A stretch of DNA of 64,000 nt from an uncultured Polaromonas sp. (GCA_966112355.1 CBHWCZ010000007.1:22752-86751), one strand, 5' to 3'; counted from the first letter of the stretch, positions 10,373-39,929 are shown. Notes: a model not told the origin generated them from the sequence alone. Translations and numbers: made by a program.

Positions 10373-10374
10373 GG

Positions 10375-13815: not shown

Positions 13816-13825
13816 GACGGTCTGT

Positions 13826-16532: not shown

Positions 16533-16659
16533 GGTGTTCTCCATCAGGTTCGGTTCGTCAGGGTCGAATGTAGAGTTCTGTAATCTATCCGTCCAACAGC
16601 TTGTTTGAGTAACATATAGCTGTTTAATCAATATACAAAGCACGCAGGGGAACTCGACC

Positions 16660-17840: not shown

Positions 17841-17901
17841 AGATTGAACTTGGCTGCTGGTTGAATGATTTTTGACTTCCAGTTACAGGTCGTTCCGGTG
17901 C

Positions 17902-17928
17902 GTCCGCTTCTGGCCCGGATGCGGAAAC
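17902..17928 (+). repeat. Cargo hairpin motif copy H2
   Basis: gtccgcttctggcccggatgcggaaac, preceded by ggtcgttc. Confidence 0.8.
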
Positions 17929-18470: not shown

Positions 18471-18506
18471 CCAAATCGAAAGGCTCACAAGCGGTCATTT
18501 AACTGC

Positions 18507-18540
18507 GGCCGCTTCTGGCCCGATTACGGCTGCCGAGACA
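18507..18540 (+). repeat. Cargo hairpin motif copy H3
   Basis: ggccgcttctggcccgattacggctgccgagaca; preceded by aagcggtcatt. Confidence 0.8.
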
Positions 18541-18708
18541 TTGCGGACGTTATCCGCTTCAGTAATTTCACATTTTCATCGTCGGTTCCCTTGATTTGGG
18601 CGATGAGGCGGTCCCTCCCGACGGCGATTTCAGCGGCTACAAGCGCACAGTAAACTGAGACGGCCGAATTGCGGCTAATTACAAAAGACAATGAGAAGGA
18701 GACAAGCC

Positions 18709-20094
18709 ATGAAGCGACGATGTTTTGTTGCAGCTGCCGCGCTGCTGCTGGGCGCATGTTCAACCCCGTCGGGGCCGCCCGCAACTCAGTCGGGCCTAGC
18801 CTCGGCCTCGGAGCGGTGGATCGCGACTTGGGCGGCCCCTGCGGTCGCCCGACTCGACCAACCAACGCAGACTCTTTCAGCGGCGGCGCTCGCCTATCCA
18901 TGGGCGCGTGATGTGCCGGCCGCCGTCGATGCGGCGGGAATTGGCTCGCAGCCGCTGCCGGTGGGGGGTATGTCTCCACTCCACTTCAAAGACCAGACCC
19001 TGCGACAAATCGCTCGCGTTTCGGTGGGGGGTACACGCGTGCGTGTCGTGTTATCCAACAGCCTCGGTACCTCGCCACTGCGCATCGGGGCTGCGCAAGT
19101 GGCGCTTAGGGATACAGGGGCCAGCATCGTCGCGGGCTCCAACCGAGTATTAACCTTCGGCGGTATTTCCCAGCCAGTGGTGCCGGCTGGCGCTTTGATG
19201 GTCAGCGATCCGGTGGATCTCGCAGTGAAGGACTTTGGCGACCTGGCGATTGATCTGCACCTGCCAGACGACACGTCCACATGGAAATCTCCGGTAACGG
19301 TTCACCCTGCCTCCTGGCAAGTTAACTATGTATCGTCACAGGGAAACTACATTGGCGCGACGCGCTTCCCAGTGATGGCCACGACGGCCTATCGCCGCAG
19401 CGACGGCCTTGCCTCAGCTTCATCGTTCTTCCTTGCCCGCGTCGAGGTTGTCGCAGCGCCGCCAACAGGCGTGCTGGTAGCGTTTGGCGACTCCATTACC
19501 GATGGCACGCAGTCCGGAATCGATGCGAATCGCCGTTGGCCAGATCTGCTAAATACTCGTCTTCATACAGCTGGCACGAGGCTAAGCGTGGTGAACGGTG
19601 GGATCGGAGGCGGCCGCGTGCTGGAGGATGGCGTCGGACCGAATGCGCTGGCCCGCTTCGACCGGGACGTTCTCGCCCAGCCGGGTGTCACTCATGTCAC
19701 GGTGCTCGAAGGGGTCAACGATATTCGGGCAGGTGGCACCAAACCATCACCGACCGTTGCCGACCTTATTGCCGGGCATCGACAACTGATTGACCGCGCA
19801 CACGCCCGCGGCTTGCGCGTTTTCGGTGGAACGGTACTTCCCTTTGAAGGTGACTCAAACTGGACCCCTGAGGGTGAGGCTAAACGCCAAGCGCTGAACG
19901 ACTGGATTCGTAAGAGTGGCGCCTACGACGCCGTGCTGGACTTCGATCGCGTGGTGCTCGACCCCGCGCGGCCGACTCGTATGCAAGCCGAGTTTGACTC
20001 TGGTGACCACCTGCATCCCGCGCCGGCTGGCTACCGGGCTATGGCCGACAGCATTGATCTGAACCTGTTCCGTCCGGGAGTGCTGGCAAAGTAG
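18709..20094 (+). CDS. SGNH/GDSL hydrolase lipoprotein
   Basis: Lipobox LLGAC; FGDSITDG, NGGIGG, LEGVND, DHLHP. Confidence 0.9.
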   Translation: MKRRCFVAAAALLLGACSTPSGPPATQSGLASASERWIATWAAPAVARLDQPTQTLSAAALAYPWARDVPAAVDAAGIGSQPLPVGGMSPLHFKDQTLRQIARVSVGGTRVRVVLSNSLGTSPLRIGAAQVALRDTGASIVAGSNRVLTFGGISQPVVPAGALMVSDPVDLAVKDFGDLAIDLHLPDDTSTWKSPVTVHPASWQVNYVSSQGNYIGATRFPVMATTAYRRSDGLASASSFFLARVEVVAAPPTGVLVAFGDSITDGTQSGIDANRRWPDLLNTRLHTAGTRLSVVNGGIGGGRVLEDGVGPNALARFDRDVLAQPGVTHVTVLEGVNDIRAGGTKPSPTVADLIAGHRQLIDRAHARGLRVFGGTVLPFEGDSNWTPEGEAKRQALNDWIRKSGAYDAVLDFDRVVLDPARPTRMQAEFDSGDHLHPAPAGYRAMADSIDLNLFRPGVLAK

Positions 20095-20158
20095 TCCAAT
20101 TAATGGGCACGTAGACTTTCGCGAGTCTCGTGCCCAACCCGTTACCGGTCATTCGCGT

Positions 20159-20188
20159 ATGTCGGCTTCTGGCTACGAAAGCGGACAC
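20159..20188 (+). repeat. Cargo hairpin motif copy H4
   Basis: atgtcggcttctggctacgaaagcggacac, preceded by ggtcattcg. Confidence 0.8.
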
Positions 20189-23079: not shown

Positions 23080-23106
23080 GTCTGCTTTTGGCCCGATAGC
23101 GGACAC
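23080..23106 (+). repeat. Cargo hairpin motif copy H5
   Basis: gtctgcttttggcccgatagcggacac. Confidence 0.8.
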
Positions 23107-23929: not shown

Positions 23930-24077
23930 GTAATGACTCTACTTCGGTGAAAAATAATGTTAATTATATTTAACATTTCTGCGATTTGTTAAATATATTT
24001 GACAAACCAAATGGGCGAGAAAACGTGCTGACCAGCACAGAGATCGCTGCCGAGGAGCCGACACCAGTCACTTACCA

Positions 24078-24110
24078 ATGTCCAGTTCTGGCCCGAAGGC
24101 CGTCGACACA
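24078..24110 (+). repeat. Cargo hairpin motif copy H6
   Basis: atgtccagttctggcccgaaggccgtcgacaca. Confidence 0.7.
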
Positions 24111-24811: not shown

Positions 24812-27790
24812 TCAGAACGTGACTCGCAGCCGCTTGGCGCGCTCTTGGAAGGCCCGCTTACCACCTTCCAGAATCGCGCATACCGTTTCGCGTATCGCCG
24901 ACTCTTCAAGGCCTCCAGACTGGTAATTCATACGCGGCAAGCGCCCGGGTTCATGACTACCGCAACTAGCGACGATTACCTGGTCAGCATCCGTGTTGAC
25001 GACAAGATTGGCGTTGTGCGTGACGATGATGACCTGGCGTCGAAGCTTTGCGCGCTGGAACTCCACAACAAGTTCGTCGTAGATCGACTGGGGATCGAGG
25101 TTTTCTTCGGGCTGGTCCACAATCAGTGGCCGGTCGTCCTGGGCGTCTACCGCCAAATACAAGAGCAACAGCACAATCCCTCGCGTGCCTGGGGACAGAC
25201 GCTCAATCGGGACACCGTCAAACTCCAAACCGTAACCGACAGAGATGTGCTCGGTGCCGAACAACCATGCCGAGACGGAGCGGGCCCACTCTTTGGGCTC
25301 GGCGTGATCTGGACGATGGACGCGAAGGTCCTTGCCGTAGGCAGCTACGAACTGCAGCAATGCTTCGCACGCGGCTGCGGCGTCGCCGGACTGCCAAGCT
25401 TCTAGCAGCGAAACTCCGGCGACCGCCCGAAGGCTACCCTTGCCTTTGAAGGGGCCTGCCGCACGCAGGTCTAGCAGGGCTTCGCCGGCTTCGCACCAAA
25501 CGTTTAGGTCGACATGCCGCCGAACGGTGAATGCCAACTTTGACAGTGAACCTTGCGCCTGCGAAATCTGGGCCTTCAGCGGCTGGTACAGCGCCTCCAG
25601 CGCGGCCTCTTCGTCCACCACGGCCTGGAACACACCGACATATGCTTCACGGCGCTGCTGCCGCAGGGAAGTGATCCTGTCGTCCGCCCCATTTGCCCGG
25701 CCGATCTCGGCGTCCATCTTGGCAAGTCCGATTTTTGCCGTGGACACCCGATCACTGATTAGCTTGAATCGCCGTGCGTTCTGTGCATCCAAGCCTATCA
25801 ATTGGCGTAGGCGGCCTAGTTCTCGCTCCAGCAGAGTCAAGGGATGTTTGGATAGGTCATCGGCTTCAGCAATCAGTGGCACGTTCGGGTCGGCCTGGGC
25901 ATCGTGCGCGGTCGTCGAGGCGTCACCTTCTAGGGTGCGCAGAGTCCGACGGATTTCTTGTTCAAGCTGGGTAAGGATCACGTCCACATCGCCAGCGAAT
26001 ACCAAGCGGAACCTCGCCCATTCGCCGACTGGCAACTCGGCTTCCTCGCGCTCCGTCTGCATTCTTTCAAGCATATCCGGCAGTACCCGCTCCCGCAAAT
26101 TTTTGACGTCGGCTGTCAGATGACGTAGAGCCTCCAGCCGGACCTTTGCCTTAAGTACTTGTGAGCGTTTAGTGTCGACTGCTTGCGATACAGCATCATG
26201 GCGCATGGCGCGGTCTGTATCCCCCTTAGGCATAAGCGCCTTCATGTCAGCCTCATCGTTCTGGAGGGCCTTCAACTTTTCGGTGCGGTCCTTTATCAGT
26301 GAGGCCAGCCCATCTTTCCTCGCTTGCTCGGCGGCCATGGCCTGTGACGCCCGCGAGATGGCATCGACCTGACGGACGCGGCTGGTCCTTGCGCCTTCCA
26401 GCCGGATTGCCAGCAACTCTTCGAACGAAGTGGCGTCCAGCCGATCTGCTTCCGAGTGCGCGTCGAAAACGACGCGCTCGATTTCCCGGAGCAACGGATC
26501 TTCCAAGCCCTCAGCTGAGCACAGTTGGTCCACGAATTGCTGGGACAGATATTGCACCTGTGGCGCGTCGACAAGATCCTCCATTTCCAAGCCCGAGAAG
26601 GAGTTTGAGGTCGTGTCCCCCGACTCCCAAAGCAGCTTAGCTTCGGACCCATTCAAATGGTCCGCGGCACGACGCAGAAAGGACTTATCGCTGAGGTGGG
26701 CGTAGACCGCGCAGCCACCCATTGCGATGAAATCAGCGAGAGCCGTCTTGCCCGATCCACGCGCGCCGATAATGGCGATGAGGCCAGGGTTCAACTCAAT
26801 GGACGAGGGCGACATCCATGGCGCTTGGCTCACGGTGACCGAGCGGATGACATTGCTAGGCAGAGCGCCTCTCGGTGGCTCAGCACCGATGAAGACGCGG
26901 CCTTCCGGGTTCATGCAGGCCTGGCGTAGGGTTTCGAAGCTCGAAGCGCCTTTGAGCCAGCAGTACCTATTCAGCGCAGGCTTGCCGACCTTCTCGTATC
27001 CATGTGCATCAGAGCCGTGCAAGCAAGGCTTAGGCCCACCCCATTTTGCATTCAGCTCTGCCAGTGAAACAGCGCCTTTGCCTTGGTAGAAGGCCGCTTG
27101 CTTGGGGTTACCACTGAAGATTATGTGGGCGAAGCCTTCGATGTTAGTGCGCGTTGCAGAAAATGACGACGACTCGTCGCGCAGCCCCGATGTGCCGTCG
27201 CGTTCACCAGCAGCGACCGCAATCAGACAATTGCTGCGGAGCCAGTCGCTCCCCTCCCAAGTCTGACGCAGATCCTCGAAGTCGATCTTGAACTGGTTAA
27301 CCCCTGCCGTAAGCGCTGCGCCGTTGTCGACAATGGACGGATCATGCGCGCGTCCGAGCCGGATTAGTTCCGACCGCTCACAACGGAACTCATCGCGCAG
27401 GTAACGAAATTTGAATCCGGCCATTAAGCGCCGGATGCGCTCCATATGGTCGTCTGCCTCAGGCGAGAACAGGAGATGGGCATTGATGGCCGCGTTGCTG
27501 GAGGTGCCGATCGATAGCCGGATCTCAACGTTGGGCAACAGCAGTTCAACGCCAGGCAGGCGGCCCCCTGCCTGCACAGCCAGGGCCGTTTCGTAAGTGT
27601 CGATAAGGAAGTAATCAGTGATGCCCAATACCTTGATCGCCGGTTCATGCTGGTTGACTCGATTACAAAAATCTGCCCATGGATCGTCTCCCGAAAATTG
27701 ATCGTTCATCGCGGTACCGGGAGCATGGATATGGGGATCCCAGCGCTGCCACAACGAGCCGCGGGTCTTGTCCGATGCGACGTCTTTCAT
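24812..27790 (-). CDS. PHP-domain + ABC/SMC-type ATPase (TrlF/Ppl-like)
   Basis: WDPHIHAPG, GITDYF, GSDAH; Walker A GARGSGKT; coiled coil; LSPG signature, VDQPEENLD, VTHNAN. Confidence 0.85.
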   Translation of the reverse strand: MKDVASDKTRGSLWQRWDPHIHAPGTAMNDQFSGDDPWADFCNRVNQHEPAIKVLGITDYFLIDTYETALAVQAGGRLPGVELLLPNVEIRLSIGTSSNAAINAHLLFSPEADDHMERIRRLMAGFKFRYLRDEFRCERSELIRLGRAHDPSIVDNGAALTAGVNQFKIDFEDLRQTWEGSDWLRSNCLIAVAAGERDGTSGLRDESSSFSATRTNIEGFAHIIFSGNPKQAAFYQGKGAVSLAELNAKWGGPKPCLHGSDAHGYEKVGKPALNRYCWLKGASSFETLRQACMNPEGRVFIGAEPPRGALPSNVIRSVTVSQAPWMSPSSIELNPGLIAIIGARGSGKTALADFIAMGGCAVYAHLSDKSFLRRAADHLNGSEAKLLWESGDTTSNSFSGLEMEDLVDAPQVQYLSQQFVDQLCSAEGLEDPLLREIERVVFDAHSEADRLDATSFEELLAIRLEGARTSRVRQVDAISRASQAMAAEQARKDGLASLIKDRTEKLKALQNDEADMKALMPKGDTDRAMRHDAVSQAVDTKRSQVLKAKVRLEALRHLTADVKNLRERVLPDMLERMQTEREEAELPVGEWARFRLVFAGDVDVILTQLEQEIRRTLRTLEGDASTTAHDAQADPNVPLIAEADDLSKHPLTLLERELGRLRQLIGLDAQNARRFKLISDRVSTAKIGLAKMDAEIGRANGADDRITSLRQQRREAYVGVFQAVVDEEAALEALYQPLKAQISQAQGSLSKLAFTVRRHVDLNVWCEAGEALLDLRAAGPFKGKGSLRAVAGVSLLEAWQSGDAAAACEALLQFVAAYGKDLRVHRPDHAEPKEWARSVSAWLFGTEHISVGYGLEFDGVPIERLSPGTRGIVLLLLYLAVDAQDDRPLIVDQPEENLDPQSIYDELVVEFQRAKLRRQVIIVTHNANLVVNTDADQVIVASCGSHEPGRLPRMNYQSGGLEESAIRETVCAILEGGKRAFQERAKRLRVTF

Positions 27791-27822
27791 CTTCCACTCC
27801 TCTTCTCTCGACGTATGACCAC

Positions 27823-28452
27823 TCACCAGACCCCTTCAATCGACGGGGCACAAATGACTAGTTTCTTGGGTGTACCTTGGTTGCCACCTAGGGCCAGTTC
27901 CTTCAAGGCCGATGGAGGACGGCGGTACCAAGTAAGGCAGACATTTACAAGGTCAATCGAGCCAGCCGATTGAGAATCAATCAACGACTCAGCAAGCGCA
28001 GAGTCATGCTCAAGGTAGAAGTCCCCGACTCGCTCTAGATCGTTGATGCTGGCCTTCTGTTCGGCCAATGGCTTCTGAAGCATCCGCCTCGGCACGTTTA
28101 GCGGGTGCCCGTCTTCCGTGATAGCCATGCCCATGATGGGCGCCATGAAGTCAACCAGCCAGCCTTGGCACTCCACCCACGCGTGAAACGCCCGCCTGTC
28201 ACTTTCAGGCCCGTTCCCAATACGTCCATACATGGCAACGCTTGCGCTTTTATCGTCAACCATCATCCCCATGAATCCAGCGCTGATCGTAGCGTGGAGC
28301 TTGTAATGCTGCCGAAGGATCAACGTCCCTGCGATAGTGAAAAAAATACAGGCTCGATGGGTACGTGCAACTTCGCTGGCCTCAAGTACGCTGTAGATGA
28401 CTTGATAAATGCGCTGATAGACCGGCAGCGGGATCAGTGGGTGAGCCTTCAT
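27823..28452 (-). CDS. DUF2026-like protein
   Basis: LIPLPVYQRIY...ACIFF...AFHAWVEC..WLVDFMAP. Confidence 0.6.
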   Translation of the reverse strand: MKAHPLIPLPVYQRIYQVIYSVLEASEVARTHRACIFFTIAGTLILRQHYKLHATISAGFMGMMVDDKSASVAMYGRIGNGPESDRRAFHAWVECQGWLVDFMAPIMGMAITEDGHPLNVPRRMLQKPLAEQKASINDLERVGDFYLEHDSALAESLIDSQSAGSIDLVNVCLTWYRRPPSALKELALGGNQGTPKKLVICAPSIEGVW

Positions 28453-28679: not shown

Positions 28680-30317
28680 ATGGTTTCCTCTCACGTCCCT
28701 GCTATTGTCCTGACCACCCTCAACGCAAAGTACATCCACGCCTCGCTTGGCCTGCGCTATCTCTTGGCCAACATGGGGGCGCTGAAGCGGCAAACCGTGC
28801 TGCGGGAGTTCACCATCGCGCGAAGGGCATCTGAGGTGGCGGCTGAGTTGCTGGCGACGCTGGGTGAGCCGCTGTCGGGGACTGTGCAGGTCATCGGGTT
28901 TGGCGTCTATATTTGGAACGTGACCCAAACAACCGAAGTGGTGCGCTTGCTCAAGAACCAGCGACCAGGGGTCAAAGTGGTGCTAGGTGGGCCCGAGGTC
29001 AGCCATGAACTGGGCGAGCAGGAGATTGTCAGCCTGGTCGACCATGTGATTACAGGCTGGGGTGATGTGAGTTTTCCGAAACTGTGCCGCGCGCTCTTGC
29101 AAGGGCCGCAACCGCTGATGAAAATCATCAAGGGTGAAGAGCCGCCGCTCGACGACATCGTACTGCCCTACGCCGAGTACACCGATACCGATCTGGCGCA
29201 CCGCCTGCTCTACGTCGAAGCGTCGCGCGGGTGTCCTTTTAAGTGCTCGTTTTGCCTAAGCTCACTCGACAAGACCGCTTGGGCGTTTGATTTGGACGCT
29301 TTTCTGGCCGAGATGGCGGGGTTGTACCAGCGCGGTGCGCGGAATTTCAAGTTTGTCGACCGTACGTTCAACCTTAAGATTGATGCCTCGGTGCGCATTC
29401 TGCAGTTTTTTCTGGATCGGATGACAGACGATTTGTTCGTGCATTTTGAAGTCGTGCCTGACCACTTACCAGATCGACTCAAAACTATGATTGCGCAGTT
29501 CCCCCCAGGAGTGCTTCAGTTTGAAGTGGGCGTGCAAAGCTTTAATACTACGGTTCAGCAACGCATCTCGCGCAAGCAGGACAACGACAAAACCGCGCTG
29601 AATTTGCGCTGGCTGGTGCAAGAGTCCAACGCGCATTTGCACACCGACTTGCTGTTTGGCCTGCCGGGCGAGTCGTTGGAGAGTTTTGCAGCGGGCTTTG
29701 ACCGCCTGCACGCCTTGCGGCCGCACGAAATTCAATTGGGGATTTTGAAGCGTCTGCGCGGCACGCCGATTGCCCGCCTCACCGCGGCATACGGCATGGT
29801 TTATGACCCCGAGCCGCCCTACACCGTACTGCAGACCGGTGCCGTGGACGCGGATACGATGAAGCGTTTTACGCGCTTCTCGCGCTACTGGGATCTGGTC
29901 GCCAATTCAGGGCGTTTCACGCAGACGCTGAACTTATTGCTGGGAGTCGGCGCCGAGACTTGCGCCGATGAACCTGCCGATGGGGACGTCACCCCAGCCA
30001 GCGTGGTGCCAGCATCGCCGTTTTACGCGTTCATGGGTTTTGCCGACTGGCTCTGGCAAAGCACCACCAAAACCAGTGGGCTGACGCCCGAAGCGCTGGT
30101 GGATGCTCTGTGTGACTACCTGATCGGTCCGTGTGCTTTGCCTTTGGACCAAGTTCAACGCGCCTTGCTGGCCGACTATGTGGCGAGTGGCGCCCGGTCC
30201 AACCCGCATGCTCTCAAAGGCCTGTTGCCCAAACGCGAAGCTCCCCAATTGCGTGGCGTCAAAACGCTGGCGAATCGCCAGGTGCTACATCAGGCTGTTC
30301 GTCAGACTGCGGACTGA
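28680..30317 (+). CDS. Intact B12-binding radical SAM protein (545 aa), element-borne homolog of the interrupted host gene
   Basis: TLNAKYIHASLGLR, GGPEVS, EASRGCPFKCSFC, FKFVDRTFN, DLLFGLPGE; colinear with both host halves. Confidence 0.95.
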   Translation: MVSSHVPAIVLTTLNAKYIHASLGLRYLLANMGALKRQTVLREFTIARRASEVAAELLATLGEPLSGTVQVIGFGVYIWNVTQTTEVVRLLKNQRPGVKVVLGGPEVSHELGEQEIVSLVDHVITGWGDVSFPKLCRALLQGPQPLMKIIKGEEPPLDDIVLPYAEYTDTDLAHRLLYVEASRGCPFKCSFCLSSLDKTAWAFDLDAFLAEMAGLYQRGARNFKFVDRTFNLKIDASVRILQFFLDRMTDDLFVHFEVVPDHLPDRLKTMIAQFPPGVLQFEVGVQSFNTTVQQRISRKQDNDKTALNLRWLVQESNAHLHTDLLFGLPGESLESFAAGFDRLHALRPHEIQLGILKRLRGTPIARLTAAYGMVYDPEPPYTVLQTGAVDADTMKRFTRFSRYWDLVANSGRFTQTLNLLLGVGAETCADEPADGDVTPASVVPASPFYAFMGFADWLWQSTTKTSGLTPEALVDALCDYLIGPCALPLDQVQRALLADYVASGARSNPHALKGLLPKREAPQLRGVKTLANRQVLHQAVRQTAD

Positions 30318-30375: not shown

Positions 30376-31287
30376 TTACTCCTTGTCCTTCCGGGCAGAA
30401 TGAATGCTCGTCACCTTCGCTCTATCGACCTTCCCGGCCTTGGTGGGGATTTTCTTCAGTAGTTCCTCGGTAGGCACCCAGATGGCTTTCGTGCGCTTCA
30501 TGACATCGGCAGGAATCTGGTGGGTCGACTTACCTTTATGGGTCGCGTCGATGATTTGGTAATCGAATCCAAGATCGACGTAGGGCTGTACGTCCTGGAC
30601 AGTCGCAAAGACGTTGGCGACCACCACGTACTCGCCATCGGCCAGCGCCTTCCGTGTCTGCTCTAGGCACCATGCGTGAGCCTGCGGCAGCTTTGTTTCG
30701 TCAAAGGCATAACCGTCTTCTGCCTGGAAGAACTGATCCGATTCGAAATGCTGGTACCCGTCTTCACGGTAGCCGTTGGCCTTGGTGCTCTTTCCGCTGC
30801 CAGGCAGTCCTCGAATCAGGACTAGGCGAGGTAATGCCGCTTCCTTTTGCGGTAGATGAACCACTTTTTCAAACTCGACTACCAGTTTGCGCAACTGAGA
30901 GGCTTCCGCCGCATCTCGCCGCGCATTCACTTCGGCCTTTCGGCGGGCGAGCACATGATCCGCCATCTTGGTTTCCAGAAGGCGCTTTTCTGCTTTGACG
31001 GTAGCCAGGTCCGCGCGCAGGTTTTCGATGAGCTGGGTGTAAGTGGTGGGCAGCGCCTTCTTACCCCCTTGCGCGAGTTTGACGGCCTCGCGCACCATGG
31101 GGTAGCGACAATCCTCCAATGCGATCAGCGTCCTGCTGCGGCCGGCTTCACGTGCAACGCTGACGGTATTGACCTTTAGCTTGCCAGCCTTGGCACTGGC
31201 TTTGAGTATTTTGTTCTGCGGCTTGCCCTCTACCAACCGGTGAAGGGCTTCGAGGAAGTCCTGCTCAATGGGGTCAGGCTGGGGCAT
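30376..31287 (-). CDS. Recombination auxiliary (TnpC/Srap-like) domain fused to a P-loop kinase (AAA_33-like)
   Basis: N-terminal VAREAGRSRTLI HTH plus coiled coil; C-terminal LVLIRGLPGSGKST...ESDQFF...AHAWC; overlaps the intB-like gene. Confidence 0.75.
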   Translation of the reverse strand: MPQPDPIEQDFLEALHRLVEGKPQNKILKASAKAGKLKVNTVSVAREAGRSRTLIALEDCRYPMVREAVKLAQGGKKALPTTYTQLIENLRADLATVKAEKRLLETKMADHVLARRKAEVNARRDAAEASQLRKLVVEFEKVVHLPQKEAALPRLVLIRGLPGSGKSTKANGYREDGYQHFESDQFFQAEDGYAFDETKLPQAHAWCLEQTRKALADGEYVVVANVFATVQDVQPYVDLGFDYQIIDATHKGKSTHQIPADVMKRTKAIWVPTEELLKKIPTKAGKVDRAKVTSIHSARKDKE

Positions 31288-33475
31288 GCTCAGCCTCCAA
31301 CGTCTGTTCGATCTGTCGGTCCAGTTGCACCACCTTAACGCCGATCTTCTTGAGCAGCTTGCCGGCCTGCTCGGCGCGCTCCTTGATCACCTTATAGCCA
31401 CTGACATCACCGCTGCGCTCCGCCCGTTTGTACGCCAGCCAGTTGTCCAAGTACCTTGCTGCCCAGAAGTCCGCGTGCCGGGCATCGAGTACAAAGCAGC
31501 CGCAGCCAGCGCACAGCGACGGTTGGCGCGTGCGGGTATTGGGTTGCTTACGCAGGAGCAACGACGTGCCAGCCTCGTCCTGGCAACGCATCTCATGGGT
31601 CCTCAGAGGCATGCAGGCACCGTGAGGTGAGAAGAAGATCGGTAGTTGCGCGTGCTCGCAAAACTTCACGACTTCCTTGTACGCATCGCTCGTCGGCAGT
31701 CCCTTGACCTGCTCAGCCAGTTTCTGCGTCGCCTGCTCCAGTTCCTCACCCATCCTGCCCGCAAGCGGGTTGCAGCCCAGCACGTTTTCGAGAATCATCA
31801 GGTTGCGGGCCTGGGTCGCCACCGACTCCATATCATTGAGTAGACTCATGTTGCTCCCGATGTAACCGCTGTCCGTCATAGCCATCGACATGTGATGAAA
31901 CTGCAACTGGATAGCAGGCATTAAGCTTGGGTCAACGGCGAACATAAACTGCGCCCAACTCTTTCGTAGCATGTGACTTTTGAAGACGTGCCCCTTGGAC
32001 TCGCGCCACTCGATAAGGTCGTTGTCCTTGATCTTGTGCCGTGACTCTTTCGGCAAACCCGACAGATCGACCCAACGTTCAATGAAACGCTTCATGCTGA
32101 GGAGCATCTTGTCGGAAGTCAACTCCCCTAGCCCGGTGGTTTTGACTGGCAAGACTATTCCGCCGTGCATCCCCAGAAGCAAGCGGGTCGTCTTGGCGTG
32201 CTCATGCCAAGGCTCATACAAGCGGTTAAGTAGGCGCAGGGCGCGCACGGGAAGCGGTTCATCCATGGAACCTTTCGGCCGCATACCCAGCACCCAGTCC
32301 ATCTCTCTAGGCAAGCCGGTTTCCGTTTTGGACAAGACTGTGCGAATCACGAACAATTCATAGAGGCCGGATGCCGAGACCTCGATCCGGACCCCCCTGG
32401 GCAACCCGCTCTCCGCATCGAACCCCGCTTCGATGCCCATCAGCTCACTGATGCGCATACCCGACATCCCTTGGATGCACAAGGCGTAGGCATCGCGCAC
32501 GGCTTCGAACAGTTGGCGCACTCGCGCCAGTGAACCATTTTGGTCTTCACTCGCATAGTTCCCGTCCAATGGCGCATGCCAGGGCTGAGATTCACCGGGC
32601 AGGTTCCTGAAGGAGAAGTCAGCAAGGAAGCGGTTGTGACGCCTCGCCCTTGCCGAACTGCCAACCCCGGCCGTTATCTTGCGAATACCTGTTTTGCTTC
32701 GTCTTTCTTCTATGTCGACTTTCGTGCCTGCGAGCGGGTCATCTAGATACCCCAGCAGGGCGATCACGTCTTCTGCCGGCCCACCCATCCACCAGGTTAC
32801 CTTGTTGAAGAGCGGTATTGCGACCTCATCAGGCAAAGGCGGAATCCAGCCCACAGCTTTGGTCGCCAACGCATCCGCGTAGTAATGTAGGCTGTGCTCG
32901 CGGAACGGGTCTTGATTGAGGGTGGGTACACCCCACCTCGTCAGCAAACGTCGCTCCGACCAGAGCTTTGGAATGATTACAAGTGCATGTTTGACTTGAC
33001 TAGTTGTAATTTCGTCTACGTCTGAACGCTCTGCGATGTAGCGCGGCAGGTCTTCGAGATAACCCTCCACATCCAGCTCATTCGGAGTTTGCATACCGCG
33101 CATTGCCATCCACGACAGGAGCCACCTAAGTCCCAGCTGGTAACTCACCATTGACCCAGCTGCCGGTACGACGCCGTTCGCTGGAGCGAGCGTGATAAGC
33201 GCAACAAGTTTTTTGGCCCACGTCAGCCGAAGTGCATGACGGGTGTCGGTGAGCCTGCTGCCGTCGCTGAGTTCCATGCCCCAGTTCACTTTGGCCTTTG
33301 TACTGCGTTGTCCAGGGGTGGTAGGCACCCACATCCAAACCGTATCCTCTCCCTTACTCAGCGGCGTGACCTGGAACGTGGCGAACTCTGCTGGGGTCAT
33401 TTCGCAGAGAGGTCGATGGCCGTTCGGCTTTTCCTGCTTTGGGACCTCATTATCGAGGGCGGAGGTCGGTTTCAT
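31274..33475 (-). CDS. Large tyrosine recombinase (IntB-like)
   Basis: GMRISEL (R), SHMLRK (HxxR), FHH, MTDSGY; Cys-rich C-terminus. Confidence 0.85.
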   Translation of the reverse strand: MKPTSALDNEVPKQEKPNGHRPLCEMTPAEFATFQVTPLSKGEDTVWMWVPTTPGQRSTKAKVNWGMELSDGSRLTDTRHALRLTWAKKLVALITLAPANGVVPAAGSMVSYQLGLRWLLSWMAMRGMQTPNELDVEGYLEDLPRYIAERSDVDEITTSQVKHALVIIPKLWSERRLLTRWGVPTLNQDPFREHSLHYYADALATKAVGWIPPLPDEVAIPLFNKVTWWMGGPAEDVIALLGYLDDPLAGTKVDIEERRSKTGIRKITAGVGSSARARRHNRFLADFSFRNLPGESQPWHAPLDGNYASEDQNGSLARVRQLFEAVRDAYALCIQGMSGMRISELMGIEAGFDAESGLPRGVRIEVSASGLYELFVIRTVLSKTETGLPREMDWVLGMRPKGSMDEPLPVRALRLLNRLYEPWHEHAKTTRLLLGMHGGIVLPVKTTGLGELTSDKMLLSMKRFIERWVDLSGLPKESRHKIKDNDLIEWRESKGHVFKSHMLRKSWAQFMFAVDPSLMPAIQLQFHHMSMAMTDSGYIGSNMSLLNDMESVATQARNLMILENVLGCNPLAGRMGEELEQATQKLAEQVKGLPTSDAYKEVVKFCEHAQLPIFFSPHGACMPLRTHEMRCQDEAGTSLLLRKQPNTRTRQPSLCAGCGCFVLDARHADFWAARYLDNWLAYKRAERSGDVSGYKVIKERAEQAGKLLKKIGVKVVQLDRQIEQTLEAEHAPA

Positions 33476-33487
33476 AGTTGCTCCTCA

Positions 33488-35536
33488 TTAGCCGATATCG
33501 GGCAGTTCAACGGTGAGTTTGCGTGACTCTTGAAGGACCTGAGGCGGAACGTTCGCCAGTAGACCGTCCAAGGCGGCGACTACGGGTGCCCAGCGATCCT
33601 TCCACACGGGGGCAGTCACTCGTATCATGCTACGGTAGATGGCACGCCGTAGCGCCTCATAGAGCATGACGTTGCTAGGATTGACTGGGCGTGCAGCAGA
33701 CAACGGGCAGTCGGGGCATTCGCCATAGGCGCTGCAAAGACGACCCTGCTTTTGATTGGGGCGCGGCGAATCAAACGGGTCTAGGCAAATCCAGCCAGGC
33801 GTTGCGCACCCTTTGCTCTCCCACTCACTGTGTTTGCGCGGATCAATCTTGCCTTCTGAGTCCAGCCAACGCTCCCTCACCAGCATAGTCTCGCCGGTGG
33901 CTTCCTTCAGCATTCGTTTCACTAGGTCGCTGGTGTAATGCGTCCAAGTGGTGACGCGGCTGGCATGGTTTCCTACCTGGCGCGCAGCCTCAAGATCGCC
34001 GCGATTGAAGAGTTGCACGTAGTCCAACATCGTCGCTCGGATCGTTTTGAGTGTAAAACTAGGAAGATTGTTGTCTTTGATGAATTTGGCAATAGCGTCC
34101 GACCAAGTCTTATCCCCCACTGCATCGTAGGTGTCGCCTCCAAAACCCTTTGCCCGCTTCATCCGATTTTTCTGGACATACAAAAAAATACGGTCGCCGT
34201 ACCTCTCTGGCTCAATCACAAATGGACGGATTCGCGAAGTTATGGCGATGAGTAGATCGAGGACCATATTGAGGCTCACCTGATTGACGCCGCCACCTTC
34301 AGGGTCCAACAGCCGTACGAGTTGTCGCCTAGCGCGCGGCTTATCGCCGGTAATTTTTGTCAAGCGAGATTCGGTTGCGTCGGACGCTTCCGCTTCCATT
34401 GATGTGTCAACCTCGTCAGCCTCTTGCGTTACGTCAAACTGCACCGCTCGCCGCCCGTTGCTCAACGGGTCAACATTGCGATCTATGTCTTTCCAATTCA
34501 GGGTAAGGATCGTGTTTGAGTTGAATACGGTTGATATGGCGATGCTCAGAACCAGCGGCACTAGTTCGCGCGCGCTCGGATAGAAGTAGCGAGTCATCTT
34601 CCCAGTACTGATACCATATTTAATCGTGTATCCGAGTAAAGCATTGTCTGCATTGATTACAGTTTGGTCGGGAATCACGCCTGGGTAGCGCTGATCAATA
34701 AGCGCAATGGCTACTGCGAGATTAGATTCCTCAACCACCGTTACGTTTCGTGTTCGAGGACTTTTTACAAGCACAGCGCCGTTGCGGCGCAATTCTCGCC
34801 CGCGCATCAGAATACTTTGGCCTTTTTCCCAATCCTCGCGCAGGGCTAGAACCTCTTTCTCGACGGCAGATATGACCGCGAGCAATTGGTCGAACTGCAG
34901 CACCTCTGTGGGTTCCACCTTGCGTTGTGCTCCACGAGGTCCACTCGGCACCAAATCAATCAAGCTCGGCATTTTAGATGCGCCAAGTGCTCCGCGTAGC
35001 GCATTGAGTTTCGAGCCGATGGTCATAGGCAGATATGCGCTTCCATCTGCTTTTCGCCTCTGACTTAACCAAGTATTGAATCCAGTAAAAATCTGTTCGT
35101 CCAAATCCGCCGGACGCAGGTTGGTGTACCCGCGCTCACCGAGAAACGCAAACCAAGAACCGCGCAGGTTTTGAGCGAAACCAATTCGGGACATGGTCCT
35201 GTAGTTCTTAATCGCCTTGAGTAACGCCTCAGCAAAGAAATCCGTCAGCCCCGGAAACGCCAGCAAGAAGCTTAGATCGAGTCGGTCGGGCTCTCCTCCG
35301 CCCTTCTTAGGGAAGATGGCAGTGAGCGTCGGCTTGCCGCCAGCTGTGCCATGTTCGATTCGTGTGGAGGGGAGGTTTTGGACGTTGGCTTGCTCAGCAT
35401 TTCGTCGACGAGCCGCTTCAAACACTTGCCGCGCGCGCTTGTTGCGGATTTTTTTGTTGGGCGGTGACTCCGGTAAGACACGTCCAGCGTTACCCGCATT
35501 CAGATCCATTGAGTCATCCATCAATCCCTCACCCAA
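33488..35536 (-). CDS. Degenerate tyrosine-recombinase-fold protein (SE CDS2-like)
   Basis: LKTIRAT, GNH, TTWTHY retained, but first catalytic Arg (FNSNTI) and HxxR His are replaced. Confidence 0.7.
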   Translation of the reverse strand: MGEGLMDDSMDLNAGNAGRVLPESPPNKKIRNKRARQVFEAARRRNAEQANVQNLPSTRIEHGTAGGKPTLTAIFPKKGGGEPDRLDLSFLLAFPGLTDFFAEALLKAIKNYRTMSRIGFAQNLRGSWFAFLGERGYTNLRPADLDEQIFTGFNTWLSQRRKADGSAYLPMTIGSKLNALRGALGASKMPSLIDLVPSGPRGAQRKVEPTEVLQFDQLLAVISAVEKEVLALREDWEKGQSILMRGRELRRNGAVLVKSPRTRNVTVVEESNLAVAIALIDQRYPGVIPDQTVINADNALLGYTIKYGISTGKMTRYFYPSARELVPLVLSIAISTVFNSNTILTLNWKDIDRNVDPLSNGRRAVQFDVTQEADEVDTSMEAEASDATESRLTKITGDKPRARRQLVRLLDPEGGGVNQVSLNMVLDLLIAITSRIRPFVIEPERYGDRIFLYVQKNRMKRAKGFGGDTYDAVGDKTWSDAIAKFIKDNNLPSFTLKTIRATMLDYVQLFNRGDLEAARQVGNHASRVTTWTHYTSDLVKRMLKEATGETMLVRERWLDSEGKIDPRKHSEWESKGCATPGWICLDPFDSPRPNQKQGRLCSAYGECPDCPLSAARPVNPSNVMLYEALRRAIYRSMIRVTAPVWKDRWAPVVAALDGLLANVPPQVLQESRKLTVELPDIG

Positions 35537-36796
35537 TCAATTTTGCAAACCGAGCAGCCTGCGGATGTCCATCACACCTTGCTTCTCACCGAAGATGGAG
35601 ACATGCGCCAGATAAGTGTCCGTGGTGACTTTCAGGCTCTTATGTCCCAGTTTGATCTGCACGATCTTCCAAGGCTCAGTTTTCCCCTGAGACTTTTCAG
35701 CGTGATAAGTCAGCACGGCGCAGTTGTGCCTAAGGTCATGGAATGAGTGAGCAGGGACTGTCTTGACATGCTTCTTACCGGTCTCAACGTCTTCCATATC
35801 AATCCGCTCAGTGATACCGCATTTCATGCATGCCAGGGCGAACATCTTCTGGATGGCGGAGCCCGTAATCCGCTTGCCTGCACTCTTGCTGGCGGCATGA
35901 CCAAGAAATAGGGCAGTGGTAGCCTTGACTCCCCGTTTCTTTCCCTCGCGCTCGCTTGATGCGCGCTCTCCGTTGATGTACGTCTGAATGGCAAGGACAA
36001 GCCAGCCTGGTGCGGCCACCTTGCGCGTGACCTTCATCTTGCCTTCTACGATCAAGGGGAAGTCCATGAGTTGTTCATGTGGCTCCACGATGATGTTCAA
36101 AAATTGAAGCGTCGTAAGCGTTGTCACATCGCCAAGTCTGGTACCTGCGACATAGCCCAGGTCACAGATAAGGCGATTACGTACTTGCCGCTTATCTTGT
36201 GTGGTTTGAACCGTGGGACCGACGTGCTCCAGTAGCTTACGCAATTGCTTTACCTGCAGCGGCCTGATTACATCCTTTCGCCCCACCTTTTTGAGCAGTG
36301 GGTCCTTTTCCTTTACACGCCCCCCCGTGGGGCGCGTGTGTGCAAGAGCGTCGTCATCGATGCGCCGATTGTCAACCAGTCGTTCCTCAATTGAAGCACC
36401 TATATCCCGGTGATACCAACCCTCGGCGCGCGCAAAGTCATAGAACCTGCGCACCGCAGTCAATTTACGGTTGATTGTTTTGTCATCGCTTGCCGCCTCG
36501 GAATAGTCGTCTGCGAATTGGTGCCTGTCTGACTCTGTCGCGGCGTGCCAGTCGATCTCTTTTAACTGACACCATTGAAACCAACTCAACAGGTCATATC
36601 CAGCGGCCGCCCAGGTGTGTGGACTTGGAGTACCGCCGACACTCACAAACTTTTGATGAAGAAAGATTGTCGGCTCTGAAAAGAGATCGACCTGATCTTT
36701 GAAATATTGGAATATCAAGGGTTGTTGTGGCACAACCAACTCTGCTCGATCACGGGCCTTAACCAGTCGTAAGTCTGCAGTTAAAAAATTGTTCAC
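35537..36796 (-). CDS. Tyrosine recombinase (IntA-like)
   Basis: AGTRLGDV, HDLRH, LGH, TTDTY: full catalytic set; 183 bp from the element end. Confidence 0.93.
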   Translation of the reverse strand: MNNFLTADLRLVKARDRAELVVPQQPLIFQYFKDQVDLFSEPTIFLHQKFVSVGGTPSPHTWAAAGYDLLSWFQWCQLKEIDWHAATESDRHQFADDYSEAASDDKTINRKLTAVRRFYDFARAEGWYHRDIGASIEERLVDNRRIDDDALAHTRPTGGRVKEKDPLLKKVGRKDVIRPLQVKQLRKLLEHVGPTVQTTQDKRQVRNRLICDLGYVAGTRLGDVTTLTTLQFLNIIVEPHEQLMDFPLIVEGKMKVTRKVAAPGWLVLAIQTYINGERASSEREGKKRGVKATTALFLGHAASKSAGKRITGSAIQKMFALACMKCGITERIDMEDVETGKKHVKTVPAHSFHDLRHNCAVLTYHAEKSQGKTEPWKIVQIKLGHKSLKVTTDTYLAHVSIFGEKQGVMDIRRLLGLQN

Positions 36797-36967
36797 GGCA
36801 TTGCTTTCACACCATCAGTAGGATGAACATAATTTATCACCGACCACTCTAATATCCATTTAAATAATGGATTTATTAAATTCCATGAACATTTTGACAA
36901 AACCTTACATTTCCGTAGATTCCAAAAAAATGAGGCGTCGAATGAGTCTTTTGTTCTGCTGCAGGGG

Positions 36968-36979
36968 AATTCCACATAA
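36968..36979 (-). repeat. Right terminal inverted repeat
   Basis: aattccacataa, directly abutting host sequence tgaaggggcagcc. Confidence 0.85.
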
Positions 36980-37520
36980 TGAAGGGGCAGCCGCGCGAGG
37001 CTTCCACATACAGCAGCCGCTTGGCGAGGTCCTCGTCGGTGTACTCGCGGTAAGGCAGGGCCAGCGCCTCCAGCGGGGGCTGCTCGCCGGCAATGATTTT
37101 CATCAGCGGCTGCGGCCCATCGAGCAAGGCGCGGCAGAGTTTCGGAAAGCTCACGTCGCCCCAGCCGGTGACCACATGGTCGGCCAGGCGGCAGATGTCC
37201 TGCTCGTTCGTTTCATGGCTGACTTCAGGGCCGCCCAGCACCACCTTGATGCCGGGGCGCAACGCCTTGAGCAGACGCACCACTTGCGTGGTTTCCACCA
37301 CGTTCCAGATGTAGACGCCGAGGCCGATGACTTCGGGCGACAGCGCCAGCAGTTCCTCGACGATCTGCGCGGGCTTCTGCTGGATCACAAACTCGCGCAG
37401 CGTGGTCTGCGCGCGCAGGCCCGGCCCGCCATGCTCATCCATGTTCGCCGCGAGGCAGCGCAGCCCCAGGGAGGCATGAATGTATTTGGCATTCAGGGTG
37501 GCAAGGACAATGCGGGACAT
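36980..37520 (-). pseudogene. 5' part of interrupted B12-binding radical SAM gene
   Basis: MSRIVLATLNAKYIHASLGLR...LLYVEASRGCPF, then homology breaks at the element end. Confidence 0.95.
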
Positions 37521-37709
37521 GACGGCATTATCGGAGCAGGGTGTAATAAAGTCGCGGGGAGACAGACTAAGCTGTATCCCGCCTGTCGGATCGCAAGCGC
37601 ACGGAGCCTCTGGGGCGATGGAGGATCAACTCCTTCACTCCGGCGCCAACCACAAGAACCCCCTGGAATCCCCCTGGAACTATTGCACCGGCCACCTGCT
37701 CACACCACC

Positions 37710-39929
37710 ATGTCTTTGATTCGCGCGCTTTCTTCTGCTCTCCCGTCATCCCTTGTTGCAGGTCTGGCCGCCACGATGTTCGCAGCCCTGGCAAGCCTTC
37801 CGGCCGGGGTTCTGGCCCAGGCGCCGTCTTCCGCCTCCTTCAATGTGCTCGGCAAAAGCAGCGCCCCAGCCAGCACCATCGTGACCACCGATCAGGTGCG
37901 TGCCGAACTGCTGGCGTGGGCGCCCGAAGGTGTCGAGCCGGGCAAACCGGTCTGGGTCGGTCTGCAACTGACGCACCAGCCCGAGTGGCACACCTACTGG
38001 AAGAATTCCGGCGACTCGGGTCTGCCCACGCAACTCGAGTGGAAACTGCCTGCCGGCATCAGCGCCGGCGACATCGCCTGGCCGACACCGAAAAAAATCT
38101 CCATCGGCACACTGGCCAACTACGGCTACGAAAACACCGTGCTGCTGCCGGTGCCGCTGACGGTGGCCTCCGGCTTTTCAGGCACGCAGGTGGCGGTGCA
38201 GCTCAAGGCCGTGTGGCTGGTCTGCCGCAAGGAATGCATTCCGCAGGAGGGTGAATTCACCCTCAGCCTGCCGGTGAAGGGCTCCACCGCCATCCACCGT
38301 GCGCTGTTCGAGGCCACCTTCGAGGCCACGCCAAAGTCACTGCCCGCAGGCGCCAGCCAGGTGGCTGTGAACGGCAAGTCCATCGAGGTGTCGCTGGCTG
38401 GCTTGCCGGCCGCCGCGCAGGGCAAGACATTGGCGCTTTACCCCGAAACCAACGGCGTGACCGAGCCCGCCGGCACCTGGCAACAGGCCTGGAAGGGTGA
38501 TGTGTGGACAGCGCAGGTGCCCTTGTCGGCGCAGCGCACCGAGAGCCCGGCCAGCATGCCGCTGGTGGTGGCCCTCAGCAACGCGGCCTGGCGTATCGAG
38601 GCGCCTGTCAAAGGCACTTGGCCGGCCGTCGCACCGGCCGCCACCTTGCCGCCGGCGCTGGAAACCGCGCTGCGCGCCAATGCCTCCGCGGGCGCCCTTC
38701 CGGTTCAGAACACAGCCCCGCCCCTGGGTCTGCTGGCAGCGCTGTTGGGCGCCCTGCTGGGTGGCATGGTCCTCAACCTGATGCCGTGCGTCTTCCCGGT
38801 GCTGGCGTTGAAGGTGGTGAGCTTTGTGCACGTGAAGGACCAGCGCGCCCGCATGGCCAACGGGCTGGCCTACACGGTGGGCGTGGTGGTGTCCTTCCTG
38901 GCCCTGGGCGCCCTGCTGCTGGGCCTGCGTGCCGCAGGCGACCAGCTGGGCTGGGGCTTCCAGCTGCAAAGCCCGGCGGTGGTGGCGACGCTGGCCGCGC
39001 TGTTCACGCTGCTGGGGCTCAACCTCGCGGGCGTCTTTGAATTCGGCAATCTGTTGCCCGGCAAGCTGGCCGGTCTGCAGGCTAAAAACCCCACCACCAA
39101 TTCTTTTCTCTCGGGTGTGCTGGCCACGGCGATTGCGTCGCCCTGCACGGCGCCGTTCATGGGTGCCTCGCTCGGCTACGCCATCGGACTGCCCGCCGCA
39201 CAGGCACTGGCGGTGTTTGGCGCCATCGGCGTCGGCATGGCCTTGCCTTACCTCGCCGCAAGCGCCGTGCCCGCCGTGGCCCGCGCCCTGCCGCGCCCAG
39301 GTGCCTGGATGGTGACCTTCAAACAGTTGATGGCCTTCCCGATGTTCGCCACCGTGGTGTGGCTGGTGTGGGTGCTGGGCCAGCAGAGCGGCATTGACGG
39401 CGCGGCTGCGTTGCTGGCGCTGCTGGTGCTGATGGCGCTGGTGATCTGGACTTTCAGTCTGCGCGGCACGGCACGCGTGCTGCTGGCGGCGCTGTCCATC
39501 GCCGCCCTGGCCTTGTCGCTCTGGTCCATCGGCCCGAACATCACGAAAGAAGCCACCGGCAACGGGCTGGCCAGCGCACCGCAGCCCGGTGAGCGCTGGC
39601 AGGCCTGGGAGCCGGGCCGCGTGGACCAGCTCGCCGCCGAGGGCCGCAGCGTGTTTGTCGACTTCACCGCCGCCTGGTGTGTGACCTGCCAGTACAACAA
39701 GAAGACGACGCTGTCCAACGCTTCGGTGCTTGCCGACATCGACGCCAAGAAGGTGACACTGCTGCGCGCCGACTGGACGCGGCGCGACCCGGCCGTGACG
39801 GCAGCGCTCGCGCAGCTCGGCCGCAGCGGGGTGCCGGTGTACGTGATCTACAAGCCGGGCAGCGCGCCGGTGGTACTGTCGGAGGTGTTGTCTGTCGATG
39901 ACGTGCGGGCCGAACTGGCCAAGCTGTAG
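37710..39929 (+). CDS. dsbD: DsbD-family protein-disulfide reductase
   Basis: WHTYWKNSGDSG, CRKEC, NLMPCVFPVL, SPCTAP, PRPGAW, thioredoxin AAWCVTC. Confidence 0.9.
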   Translation: MSLIRALSSALPSSLVAGLAATMFAALASLPAGVLAQAPSSASFNVLGKSSAPASTIVTTDQVRAELLAWAPEGVEPGKPVWVGLQLTHQPEWHTYWKNSGDSGLPTQLEWKLPAGISAGDIAWPTPKKISIGTLANYGYENTVLLPVPLTVASGFSGTQVAVQLKAVWLVCRKECIPQEGEFTLSLPVKGSTAIHRALFEATFEATPKSLPAGASQVAVNGKSIEVSLAGLPAAAQGKTLALYPETNGVTEPAGTWQQAWKGDVWTAQVPLSAQRTESPASMPLVVALSNAAWRIEAPVKGTWPAVAPAATLPPALETALRANASAGALPVQNTAPPLGLLAALLGALLGGMVLNLMPCVFPVLALKVVSFVHVKDQRARMANGLAYTVGVVVSFLALGALLLGLRAAGDQLGWGFQLQSPAVVATLAALFTLLGLNLAGVFEFGNLLPGKLAGLQAKNPTTNSFLSGVLATAIASPCTAPFMGASLGYAIGLPAAQALAVFGAIGVGMALPYLAASAVPAVARALPRPGAWMVTFKQLMAFPMFATVVWLVWVLGQQSGIDGAAALLALLVLMALVIWTFSLRGTARVLLAALSIAALALSLWSIGPNITKEATGNGLASAPQPGERWQAWEPGRVDQLAAEGRSVFVDFTAAWCVTCQYNKKTTLSNASVLADIDAKKVTLLRADWTRRDPAVTAALAQLGRSGVPVYVIYKPGSAPVVLSEVLSVDDVRAELAKL

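Follow-up and report, generated by a model that had tools for sequence, protein, structure and literature searches.

The window analyzed here is a 64,000-nucleotide stretch of one strand from an uncultured Polaromonas sp. (GCA_966112355.1 CBHWCZ010000007.1:22752-86751). On its minus strand, positions 30376-36796 hold four open reading frames (ORFs) of 419, 682, 733, and 303 amino acids (aa) in the order intA-tfp-intB-srap, the gene order found in integrative elements of the strand-biased circularizing type (SEs): intA (35537-36796), tfp (33488-35536), intB (31274-33475), and a srap fusion (30376-31287). The intA and tfp ORFs abut with 0 bp between them, a 12-bp gap lies between tfp and intB, and intB and srap overlap by 14 bp; these core genes are therefore tightly coupled. 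The tfp start codon of the 682-aa form is TTG, and an ATG five codons in gives a 677-aa form. The same order is kept in seven relatives. An earlier reading made from the sequence alone, called here the original prediction, had described a tightly coupled operon of these four lengths, with full R-HxxR-H-Y sets in the first and third proteins and a second protein without the first Arg and the HxxR His, and our analysis bears out each of these points. Its coordinates, 30376-36796, hold for the core operon and fall short as the extent of the element, as they take in 6.4 kb of 32.5 kb only. The core module forms the left end of a 32,482-bp island (4498-36979) bounded by inverted repeats, with the core ORFs starting 183 bp from the terminal repeat. 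A promoter and terminator scan gave no signal above that in shuffled sequences, and an Rfam scan of the 64-kb window gave no match.

We aligned the core proteins with homologues from 12 other loci, in 13-sequence and 12-sequence alignments. IntA is a tyrosine recombinase with Pfam Phage_int_SAM_1 and Phage_integrase domains, and its catalytic set (R220, K253, H353-x-x-R356, H385, and Y395) is invariant in the alignment; it is 23 to 24% identical to SE IntA proteins. IntB is a large tyrosine recombinase with a weak, sub-threshold Pfam Phage_integrase match. Its alignment gave the catalytic set R341, K383, H501-x-x-R504, H528, and Y538 and an invariant C-terminal four-Cys motif (C621, C631, C655, and C658), and the IntB profile matches XerA over a span that covers exactly these catalytic motifs. 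The Pfam scan of Tfp matched no domain. In the alignments, Tfp has N339 at the Arg-I position (STVFN versus TGxR) and K497 in place of the HxxR His, retains K399, R500, H524, and Y534, and carries a C-terminal four-Cys motif of its own (C584, C601, C607, and C610). The AlphaFold model of Tfp (predicted local distance difference test [pLDDT] score, 70.5) had XerH as its sole significant type of Foldseek neighbor in the PDB (5jk0 and 5jjv; E, 8e-4 to 3e-3), and XerH (5JJV) is the template also reported for SE Tfp (PMC10214605). Because hhalign of Tfp to IntA covered only the N-terminal SAM-like region (59.8%), the mapping of the Tfp catalytic residues rests on the motif alignment and the XerH fold match. 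As modeled, Tfp is a protein of tyrosine-recombinase fold that lacks two catalytic residues. Single-sequence phmmer searches of IntA and IntB against the PDB found no match, and the Tfp profile run against PDB sequences returned noise only.

The fourth protein joins two parts. Residues 1 to ∼145 comprise an N-terminal helix-turn-helix (HTH) and a long coiled coil homologous to SE Srap, with the HTH motif VAxEAGxSRxLI..YP common to both, and residues ∼150 to 280 form an AAA_33 or polynucleotide-kinase-like P-loop domain with the Walker A sequence GLPGSGKS. The Walker A motif, E182, and D184 are invariant among the aligned fusions. The AlphaFold model (pLDDT, 81) consists of the HTH, a 60-residue helix, and the P-loop domain, for which the best Foldseek neighbors in the PDB were mammalian PNKP, Clostridium thermocellum Pnk (CthPnk), and T4 Pnk. 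The Srap-AAA_33 fusion occurs in about 90 clusters, mostly from Betaproteobacteria and with Halothiobacillus in addition, and more distant members from Janthinobacterium, Sphingobium, and Methylomonas have the short form of Srap.

We placed the module in a family by protein homology. A DNA-level comparison of the core with plasmids found no similarity. Searches of plasmids by tblastn returned closer four-gene cassettes in Sphingobium pSES189 (L001), Methylomonas pUP202 (L002), and Novosphingobium pLA1 (L003) and, at a greater distance, typical SEs in Vibrio pVb1796, Pseudomonas aeruginosa Rms139, a second P. aeruginosa plasmid, and Rahnella. The gammaproteobacterial SE proteins are about 380, 550, 620, and 135 aa long, and the last is annotated as TetR-like, as published for Srap. 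All-against-all BLASTP gave matches at the same position only (IntA with IntA, Tfp with Tfp, IntB with IntB, and Srap with Srap), and the matches form a chain from the window through pSES189 and pUP202 to Novosphingobium pLA1 and from there to the SEs of Vibrio, Pseudomonas, and Rahnella. The window Srap also matches SE Srap directly in BLASTP, at 38 bits. The original prediction had proposed profile searches against SE core proteins as a check. When we compared profiles of the window's clade with profiles of four gammaproteobacterial SEs, leaving out the intermediates, hhalign gave probabilities of 97.3% for Tfp (E, 2.5e-11; 424 columns) and 96.4% for Srap (E, 1.4e-9).

Some of the plasmid cassettes are worth recording for themselves. 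A Cupriavidus metallidurans CH34 pMOL28 cassette (L030; NC_006525.1, 73126-78311) is 27 to 32% identical to a Vibrio SE at all four positions, and SE-type cassettes are also found on Novosphingobium pLA1 and pLA4 (L003 and L029). The pUP202 element is a cargo-less cassette of about 6 kb between traU and traN, and its termini have candidate 9-bp inverted repeats.

The island interrupts a host gene. G+C content falls from 65 to 68% to 50 to 62% between ∼4.0 and 37 kb, and a minus-strand gene for a B12-binding radical S-adenosylmethionine (radical-SAM)/DUF4080 protein is split around this region. Its N-terminal part (aa 1 to ∼180, ...SRGCPF) lies at 36980-37520 in the attL flank, as recognized by tblastn, the Pfam B12-binding domain, and the empty-site alignment, and its C-terminal part, which starts ...(K)CEFCLS, lies at 3401-4491 in the attR flank, as recognized by tblastn and synteny with L008 to L010. 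The rebuilt protein matched 15 related genomes, mostly metagenome-assembled genomes (MAGs) and isolates of Polaromonas, at up to 94% protein identity, and the target gene runs uninterrupted across the site in all 15; the empty-site alignment places empty sites in 14 related genomes. The window flanks are 88 to 89% identical in DNA to the closest genome, L008. Adjacent positions 8553 and 8554 of L009 map to window positions 36980 and 4491; the insert is therefore exactly 4492-36979, with neither duplication nor deletion of the target. The insertion point lies between ...GGCTGCCCCTTCA and AGTGCGAG..., within the codons for the CxxxCxxC cluster motif. By these flanking sequences the host is Polaromonas-like, a member of the Comamonadaceae in the Betaproteobacteria, which agrees with the Comamonadaceae host and the new target that had been proposed. 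Three MAG records (L008, L009, and L021) whose titles name Synechococcus sp. UW140, Rhizobium sp. Q54, and Candidatus Kapabacteria hold a Polaromonas-type version of this locus, and two of them (L008 and L009) have 80 to 89% DNA identity to the window flanks; either these labels look wrong or the bins look contaminated.

The original prediction had named short terminal inverted repeats and a 6-bp footprint among the features that define SEs, and we located both in this element. The 12-bp motif TTATGTKGAATT occurs exactly twice in the 64 kb (0.20 expected by chance), once at each end of the island, with the copies inverted relative to each other. The intA-proximal copy, C (TTATGTGGAATT), is at 36968-36979 on the minus strand, and the intA-distal copy, C' (TTATGTTGAATT on the plus strand), is at 4498-4509. 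C and C' are imperfect inverted repeats, with 11 of 12 positions matching, or 13 of 18 if extended. Motif C also lies 180 to 196 bp upstream of intA in L023, L026, L027, L028, and L031, and a fuzzy search for C' in the loci of relatives found none within the 10-kb flanks.

The two junctions are not alike. The host flank directly abuts the intA-proximal repeat, and the 6 bp CCTTCA adjoining the element at attL are the host's own; the empty-site alignment shows 6 extra bp, GCTTTG in element orientation (4492-4497), only at the intA-distal side, between C' and the host flank. With a slash marking each junction, attL reads ...GGCTGCCCCTTCA/TTATGTGGAATTCC... and attR reads ...AAAAATTCAACATAA/GCTTTG/AGTGCGAGTTCTGC... 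in element orientation, and attB reads ...GGCTGCCCCTTCA/AGTGCGAGTTCTGC...; an empty attB product would be GGCTGCCCCTTCAAGTGCGAG. On a sediment-metagenome contig (L039) lies the attR of another, related element, inserted into the same gene at the identical point and reading ...AATACTACATAA/TGCTCA/AGTGCGAGTT..., with 6 bp unlike the GCTTTG of the window. As described for SEs and Tn554, the hexamer beside C' is carried over from the previous donor site, and the one that stays beside C is the host's own central 6 bp (PMC10214605 and PMC9345347). Six bp on one side only, different in two elements at one site, are an SE/Tn554-type footprint. A metagenome scan for attR junctions (C', 6 nt, and host flank) yielded five matches, all of them chance matches in AT-rich contigs.

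Inside each end lies a pair of subterminal TGTTCA repeats. In the attL arm (36824-36891, minus strand) the two copies are at 36886-36891 and 36824-36829, 62 bp apart, and in the attR arm (4514-4582, plus strand) they are at 4514-4519 and 4577-4582, 63 bp apart. The pairs are inverted between the arms and are conserved in the attL arms of relatives, and the same pair is present in the L039 attR arm. These paired repeats are probably binding sites for an accessory protein.

We examined eight attL junctions, six of which fall 7 nt past the first Cys codon in the CxxxCxxC motif of a radical-SAM gene. The window and L026 have the junction SRGC-PF/ in the B12/DUF4080 family, and L025, L027, L031, and L032 have the junction YRGC-EH/ (...INPYRGCEH/) in SplB-like radical-SAM genes; L028 has its junction in comM, and L023 has its junction in a further gene. 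The radical-SAM insertions have the common flank CGN GGN TGY N7 in two unrelated radical-SAM families. With L039, three independent junctions share the B12 radical-SAM site and four share the equivalent SplB-like point, a preference for a few selected sites as in SEs. These junction sequences suggest that the elements of this clade recognize the stretch of DNA coding for the conserved RGC motif.

The named relatives of the window Tfp (Curvibacter, Niveibacterium, Chitinimonas, and Janthinobacterium) are all Betaproteobacteria, and relatives whose Tfp is 62 to 81% identical occupy several different sites. The Tfp-clade profile matched 798 clusters at 50% identity with an E value of ≤1e-3 and 377 with an E value of ≤1e-30 among 1.84 billion representatives. 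In many relatives, srap is followed by a 152- to 154-aa gene (weak DUF6262 match, coiled coil) and then by a gene for a 743-aa RecD2-like helicase (HHH_RecD2, AAA_30, and SH3_13), as at 15140-17828 in L026, 15146-17835 in L027, and 15106-17795 in L028. These two genes may be extra core genes of the clade; neither is present in the element of the window. We considered the PDC-S53 helicase of the window as a counterpart of the RecD2-like helicase and rejected it, as the two have only generic superfamily 1 (SF1) similarity.

Directly after srap, the element carries an intact copy of its target gene (28680-30317, plus strand), which encodes a 545-aa B12-binding radical-SAM/DUF4080 paralogue. This paralogue is 62 to 68% identical to the split host gene and, among named organisms, is closest to Rhodoferax (77 to 78%); L039 has a 94%-identical copy in a different position and arrangement. 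Elements of the SE-6283 family insert in bcp and likewise carry a bcp copy right after srap (PMC9345347). By this parallel, the cargo radical-SAM gene would compensate for the disrupted host gene. The attB-equivalent of the paralogue has diverged (GGGTGTCCTTTTA versus GGCTGCCCCTTCA), which may protect it from self-insertion.

The rest of the cargo (4510-28679) was annotated with Pfam and PADLOC. It includes AbiTii (6123-7043); an operon for a sulfite-oxidase-like molybdenum enzyme, two extracytoplasmic function (ECF) sigma factors, an anti-sigma factor, a DUF305 protein, and a beta-propeller protein (lactonase) exported by twin-arginine translocation (TAT) (8495-14350); a YeiH-like gene with a LysR gene (15375-17586); a GDSL lipase gene (18691-20094); a PDC-S53 candidate-defense helicase gene (20335-23025; PADLOC, 1,327 bits); and a minus-strand Ppl-like PHP-ATPase gene with its DUF2026 partner (24812-28452). 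Among the cargo ORFs that we scanned, we recognized neither a relaxase gene nor a type IV secretion gene, which agrees with the absence of conjugation genes claimed earlier. In the 1,004-aa Ppl-like protein, a PHP-like region (HIHAPG...) at the N terminus is combined with an ABC/AAA_21 ATPase at the C terminus, and the best PADLOC match of this protein was Ppl, at 105 bits and over the C-terminal part only. Its gene is translationally coupled to the DUF2026 gene, and the pair may be a two-gene variant of the Ppl defense system.

An intergenic repeat specific to the island, with the core GGTCrTTC...GTCnGCTTCTGGCCCGAnnGCGG...GAGACA, is present in six to seven copies in one orientation (plus strand; 5554-5612, 7666-7763, 17882-17924, 18487-18547, 20141-20183, 23080-23102, and 24060-24102), each at a boundary between cargo modules. 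Its 13-mer had 10 matches at ≤2 mismatches versus 3.1 ± 1.8 in shuffled sequences, and the close copies all lie within the island. We found no conserved hairpin and no Rfam match for this repeat and no copy in any of the fetched loci. Perhaps the repeat marks the joints between cassettes or a site of recombination.

Two observations concern the window outside the element. In a listed 1,020-aa ORF (36867-39929, plus strand), the 5' end is an artifact: it begins within the attL arm and crosses the host radical-SAM fragment in antisense. The gene proper occupies the 3' two-thirds and encodes a DsbD-like thiol:disulfide interchange protein. The G+C content dips at 49001-50000 and 58001-60000 (0.50 and 0.55 to 0.59 versus ∼0.65), in one case close to tRNA-Gln (61737-61829), and these dips may be small islands.

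In its anatomy, the element resembles the described SEs (SE-6283, SE-6945, and 35 further elements; Nonaka et al. 2022, PMC9345347; Idola et al. 2023, PMC10214605) in many respects. Both have translationally coupled intA-tfp-intB-srap genes at one end, two RHRY recombinases (one ordinary and one large) with a recombinase-fold protein without the full motif, and a Srap with an N-terminal HTH and a coiled coil, with profile-level homology at all four positions. Both have imperfect terminal inverted repeats, insert site specifically without duplication, leave a 6-bp footprint by the intA-distal end, lack conjugation genes, and have a G+C content below that of the host; like the bcp elements of the SE-6283 family, the window element disrupts a gene and carries its homologue right after srap. 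It differs in its betaproteobacterial host, since SEs are reported from Gammaproteobacteria only, in its larger Tfp and IntB (682 and 733 aa versus ∼550 and 620 aa), in the extra polynucleotide-kinase-like domain of Srap, in its radical-SAM Cys-motif target codons, and in its terminal motif. Strand bias is a property of the SEs that the window element is predicted to share. The Tn554 family (tnpA, tnpB, and tnpC; Staphylococcus, Enterococcus, and Actinobacteria) is also site specific, makes no duplication, and has a variable 6-bp junction from the donor site. It has no Tfp-type pseudo-recombinase and is found in other phyla; Tn554 has only tnpA-tnpB-tnpC, whereas the window has a 682-aa Tfp gene between two recombinase genes, a separation by gene content and not by protein comparison. 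RIT elements (Van Houdt et al. 2012, PMC3414803; Ricker et al. 2013) carry tyrosine-recombinase genes that overlap in tandem and are common in Beta- and Alphaproteobacteria, but their three proteins are of ordinary size, all have the catalytic motif, and are joined by no fourth accessory gene. Identity with RIT, set apart here by architecture only, and with BIM elements was ruled out on those grounds.

Taken together, the island at 4498-36979 is probably an intact, nonconjugative element of the SE superfamily in a Polaromonas-like chromosome. Each point of the original prediction that sequence can check was borne out. Homology with SE-6283 and SE-6945 suggests that the four proteins assemble on attL and attR. 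By analogy with SEs, only one strand would be exchanged between attL and attR to give a circle, with a 6-bp spacer (CCTTCA) copied from the attL flank; the circle joint would read ...AATTCAACATAA-CCTTCA-TTATGTGGAATT..., with the spacer from the attL flank only, and the donor copy would stay in place (copy-out). The circle would then integrate at CGN-GGN-TGY+7 sites and deposit the spacer next to C'. Since that spacer comes from the donor, GCTTTG would be the footprint of a previous donor site. We propose that Tfp takes up recombinase positions but does not cleave, which would account for the bias to one strand, and that the polynucleotide-kinase-like domain fused to Srap may act on the 5'-OH ends left by tyrosine recombinases. 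To pass from cell to cell, the element would rely on a helper, for instance a plasmid or some other conjugative element.

The main alternative is a conventional integrative mobilizable island with a multisubunit tyrosine recombinase, SE-like in gene content only, that is cut out and pasted in by two-strand exchange and restores the empty site. In its favor, strand bias in the window element is a prediction by analogy with SEs, some strains have empty sites from four-gene GInts (PMC10214605, Table 1), and Tfp retains a Tyr, a Lys, Arg-II, and a His. However, an asymmetric junction with no duplication and 6 foreign bp on one side that differ between two elements is not expected from two-strand exchange across a common core and is the signature described for SEs and Tn554, and all four proteins are homologous to SE proteins. 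We consider such an island unlikely. An immobile relic, that is, an SE-type element fixed in the lineage whose genes persist without transposition, would fit the single copy in the window and the lack of a circle joint in contigs; the contigs of the two runs that hold the sequence, together with a glacier metagenome that contains a ∼90 to 95% relative, gave no informative circle or empty-site joints. A relic is nevertheless very improbable: the four core ORFs, both terminal repeats, and the subterminal repeats are all intact, the island is absent from genomes 88 to 89% identical in the flanks, relatives with 62 to 81% identical Tfp sit at several different sites, and a second element shares the 94%-identical cargo gene in a different arrangement.

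The least probable of these alternatives, to which we give hardly any weight, is a GInt (ginABCD, Tn6571 family; Bardaji et al. 2017, PMC5385486). GInts are four-gene elements already known from Betaproteobacteria, reported in 2.5% of betaproteobacterial replicons (PMC10214605), with four essential genes that include a recombinase-like protein without the first Arg and a small accessory protein; they are nonconjugative and carry large cargo that often includes defense genes. The window element shares with them the four-gene cassette, the degenerate recombinase, the small accessory protein, and cargo with defense genes. Their degenerate protein is encoded third, whereas it is second in the window, an order that the original prediction had already recognized as SE-type, and they are flanked by direct imperfect repeats of 10 to 11 nt. 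As the single GInt reference we used E. coli Sakai ECs_3512-3509 (coordinates from Additional file 10 of PMC10214605), whose order is Int, Int, degenerate, small and whose proteins are much smaller (401, 437, 543, and 132 aa). Its GinC and GinD had no BLASTP match to the window proteins and gave 0.3% and 1.0%, respectively, in hhalign; single SE sequences in the same hhalign test gave 93.9% for Srap and a colinear 212-column match for Tfp. Because SE profiles match and GinC and GinD do not, the element falls on the SE side.

Several points weigh against the assignment to the SE superfamily or against parts of the proposed mechanism. Direct BLASTP of the window Tfp against SE Tfp found no match, and the Tfp link rests on profiles and intermediates. 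In the published SE survey, neither Alpha- nor Betaproteobacteria yielded a homologue of Tfp or Srap. The 12-bp terminal repeat is slightly shorter than, or at the short end of, the published range, the SE motifs C and C' being reported as 13 to 19 bp. Tfp has kept the Lys, Arg-II, His-III, and the Tyr at the nucleophile position and, judged by these residues, may not be fully inactive. The kinase-like domain of Srap has no obvious conserved RxxxR lid, and a donor site that accounts for GCTTTG was not found.

Compared with the described SEs, the element of the window is new in its betaproteobacterial host, its radical-SAM Cys-motif targets, and its Srap kinase-like fusion, and we list the replacement copy of the target gene and the defense cargo among the new features. 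The extension of host range is real relative to the literature and is not unique to the window, because SE-type cassettes are already present, unremarked, in public records of beta- and alphaproteobacterial plasmids. SEs have been proposed as a model of host-restricted mobile elements because they were found only in some Gammaproteobacteria. With SE hallmarks in a Comamonadaceae chromosome and cassettes on alpha- and betaproteobacterial plasmids, this narrow host range looks like a limit of PSI-BLAST sensitivity and not like biology. The claimed host restriction of SEs is removed, which is of interest to specialists in mobile DNA. Anti-phage systems (AbiTii, PDC-S53, and Ppl-like) moved without conjugation genes also bear on the spread of defense islands. 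The element is useful for experiments as well, with a universally conserved coding motif as its target, a built-in replacement of the disrupted gene, and a kinase-like fusion, and this fusion suggests that end processing belongs to the copy-out chemistry. More tentatively, this could be the first member to be described from a deep SE branch, found mainly in Betaproteobacteria, that homes to CxxxCxxC-encoding DNA in at least two unrelated radical-SAM families and whose accessory protein has gained a 5'-OH polynucleotide-kinase domain that processes the ends of one-strand cleavage. If that is true, the kinase would give direct biochemical access to the mechanism by which SE, Tn554, and GInt elements copy out.

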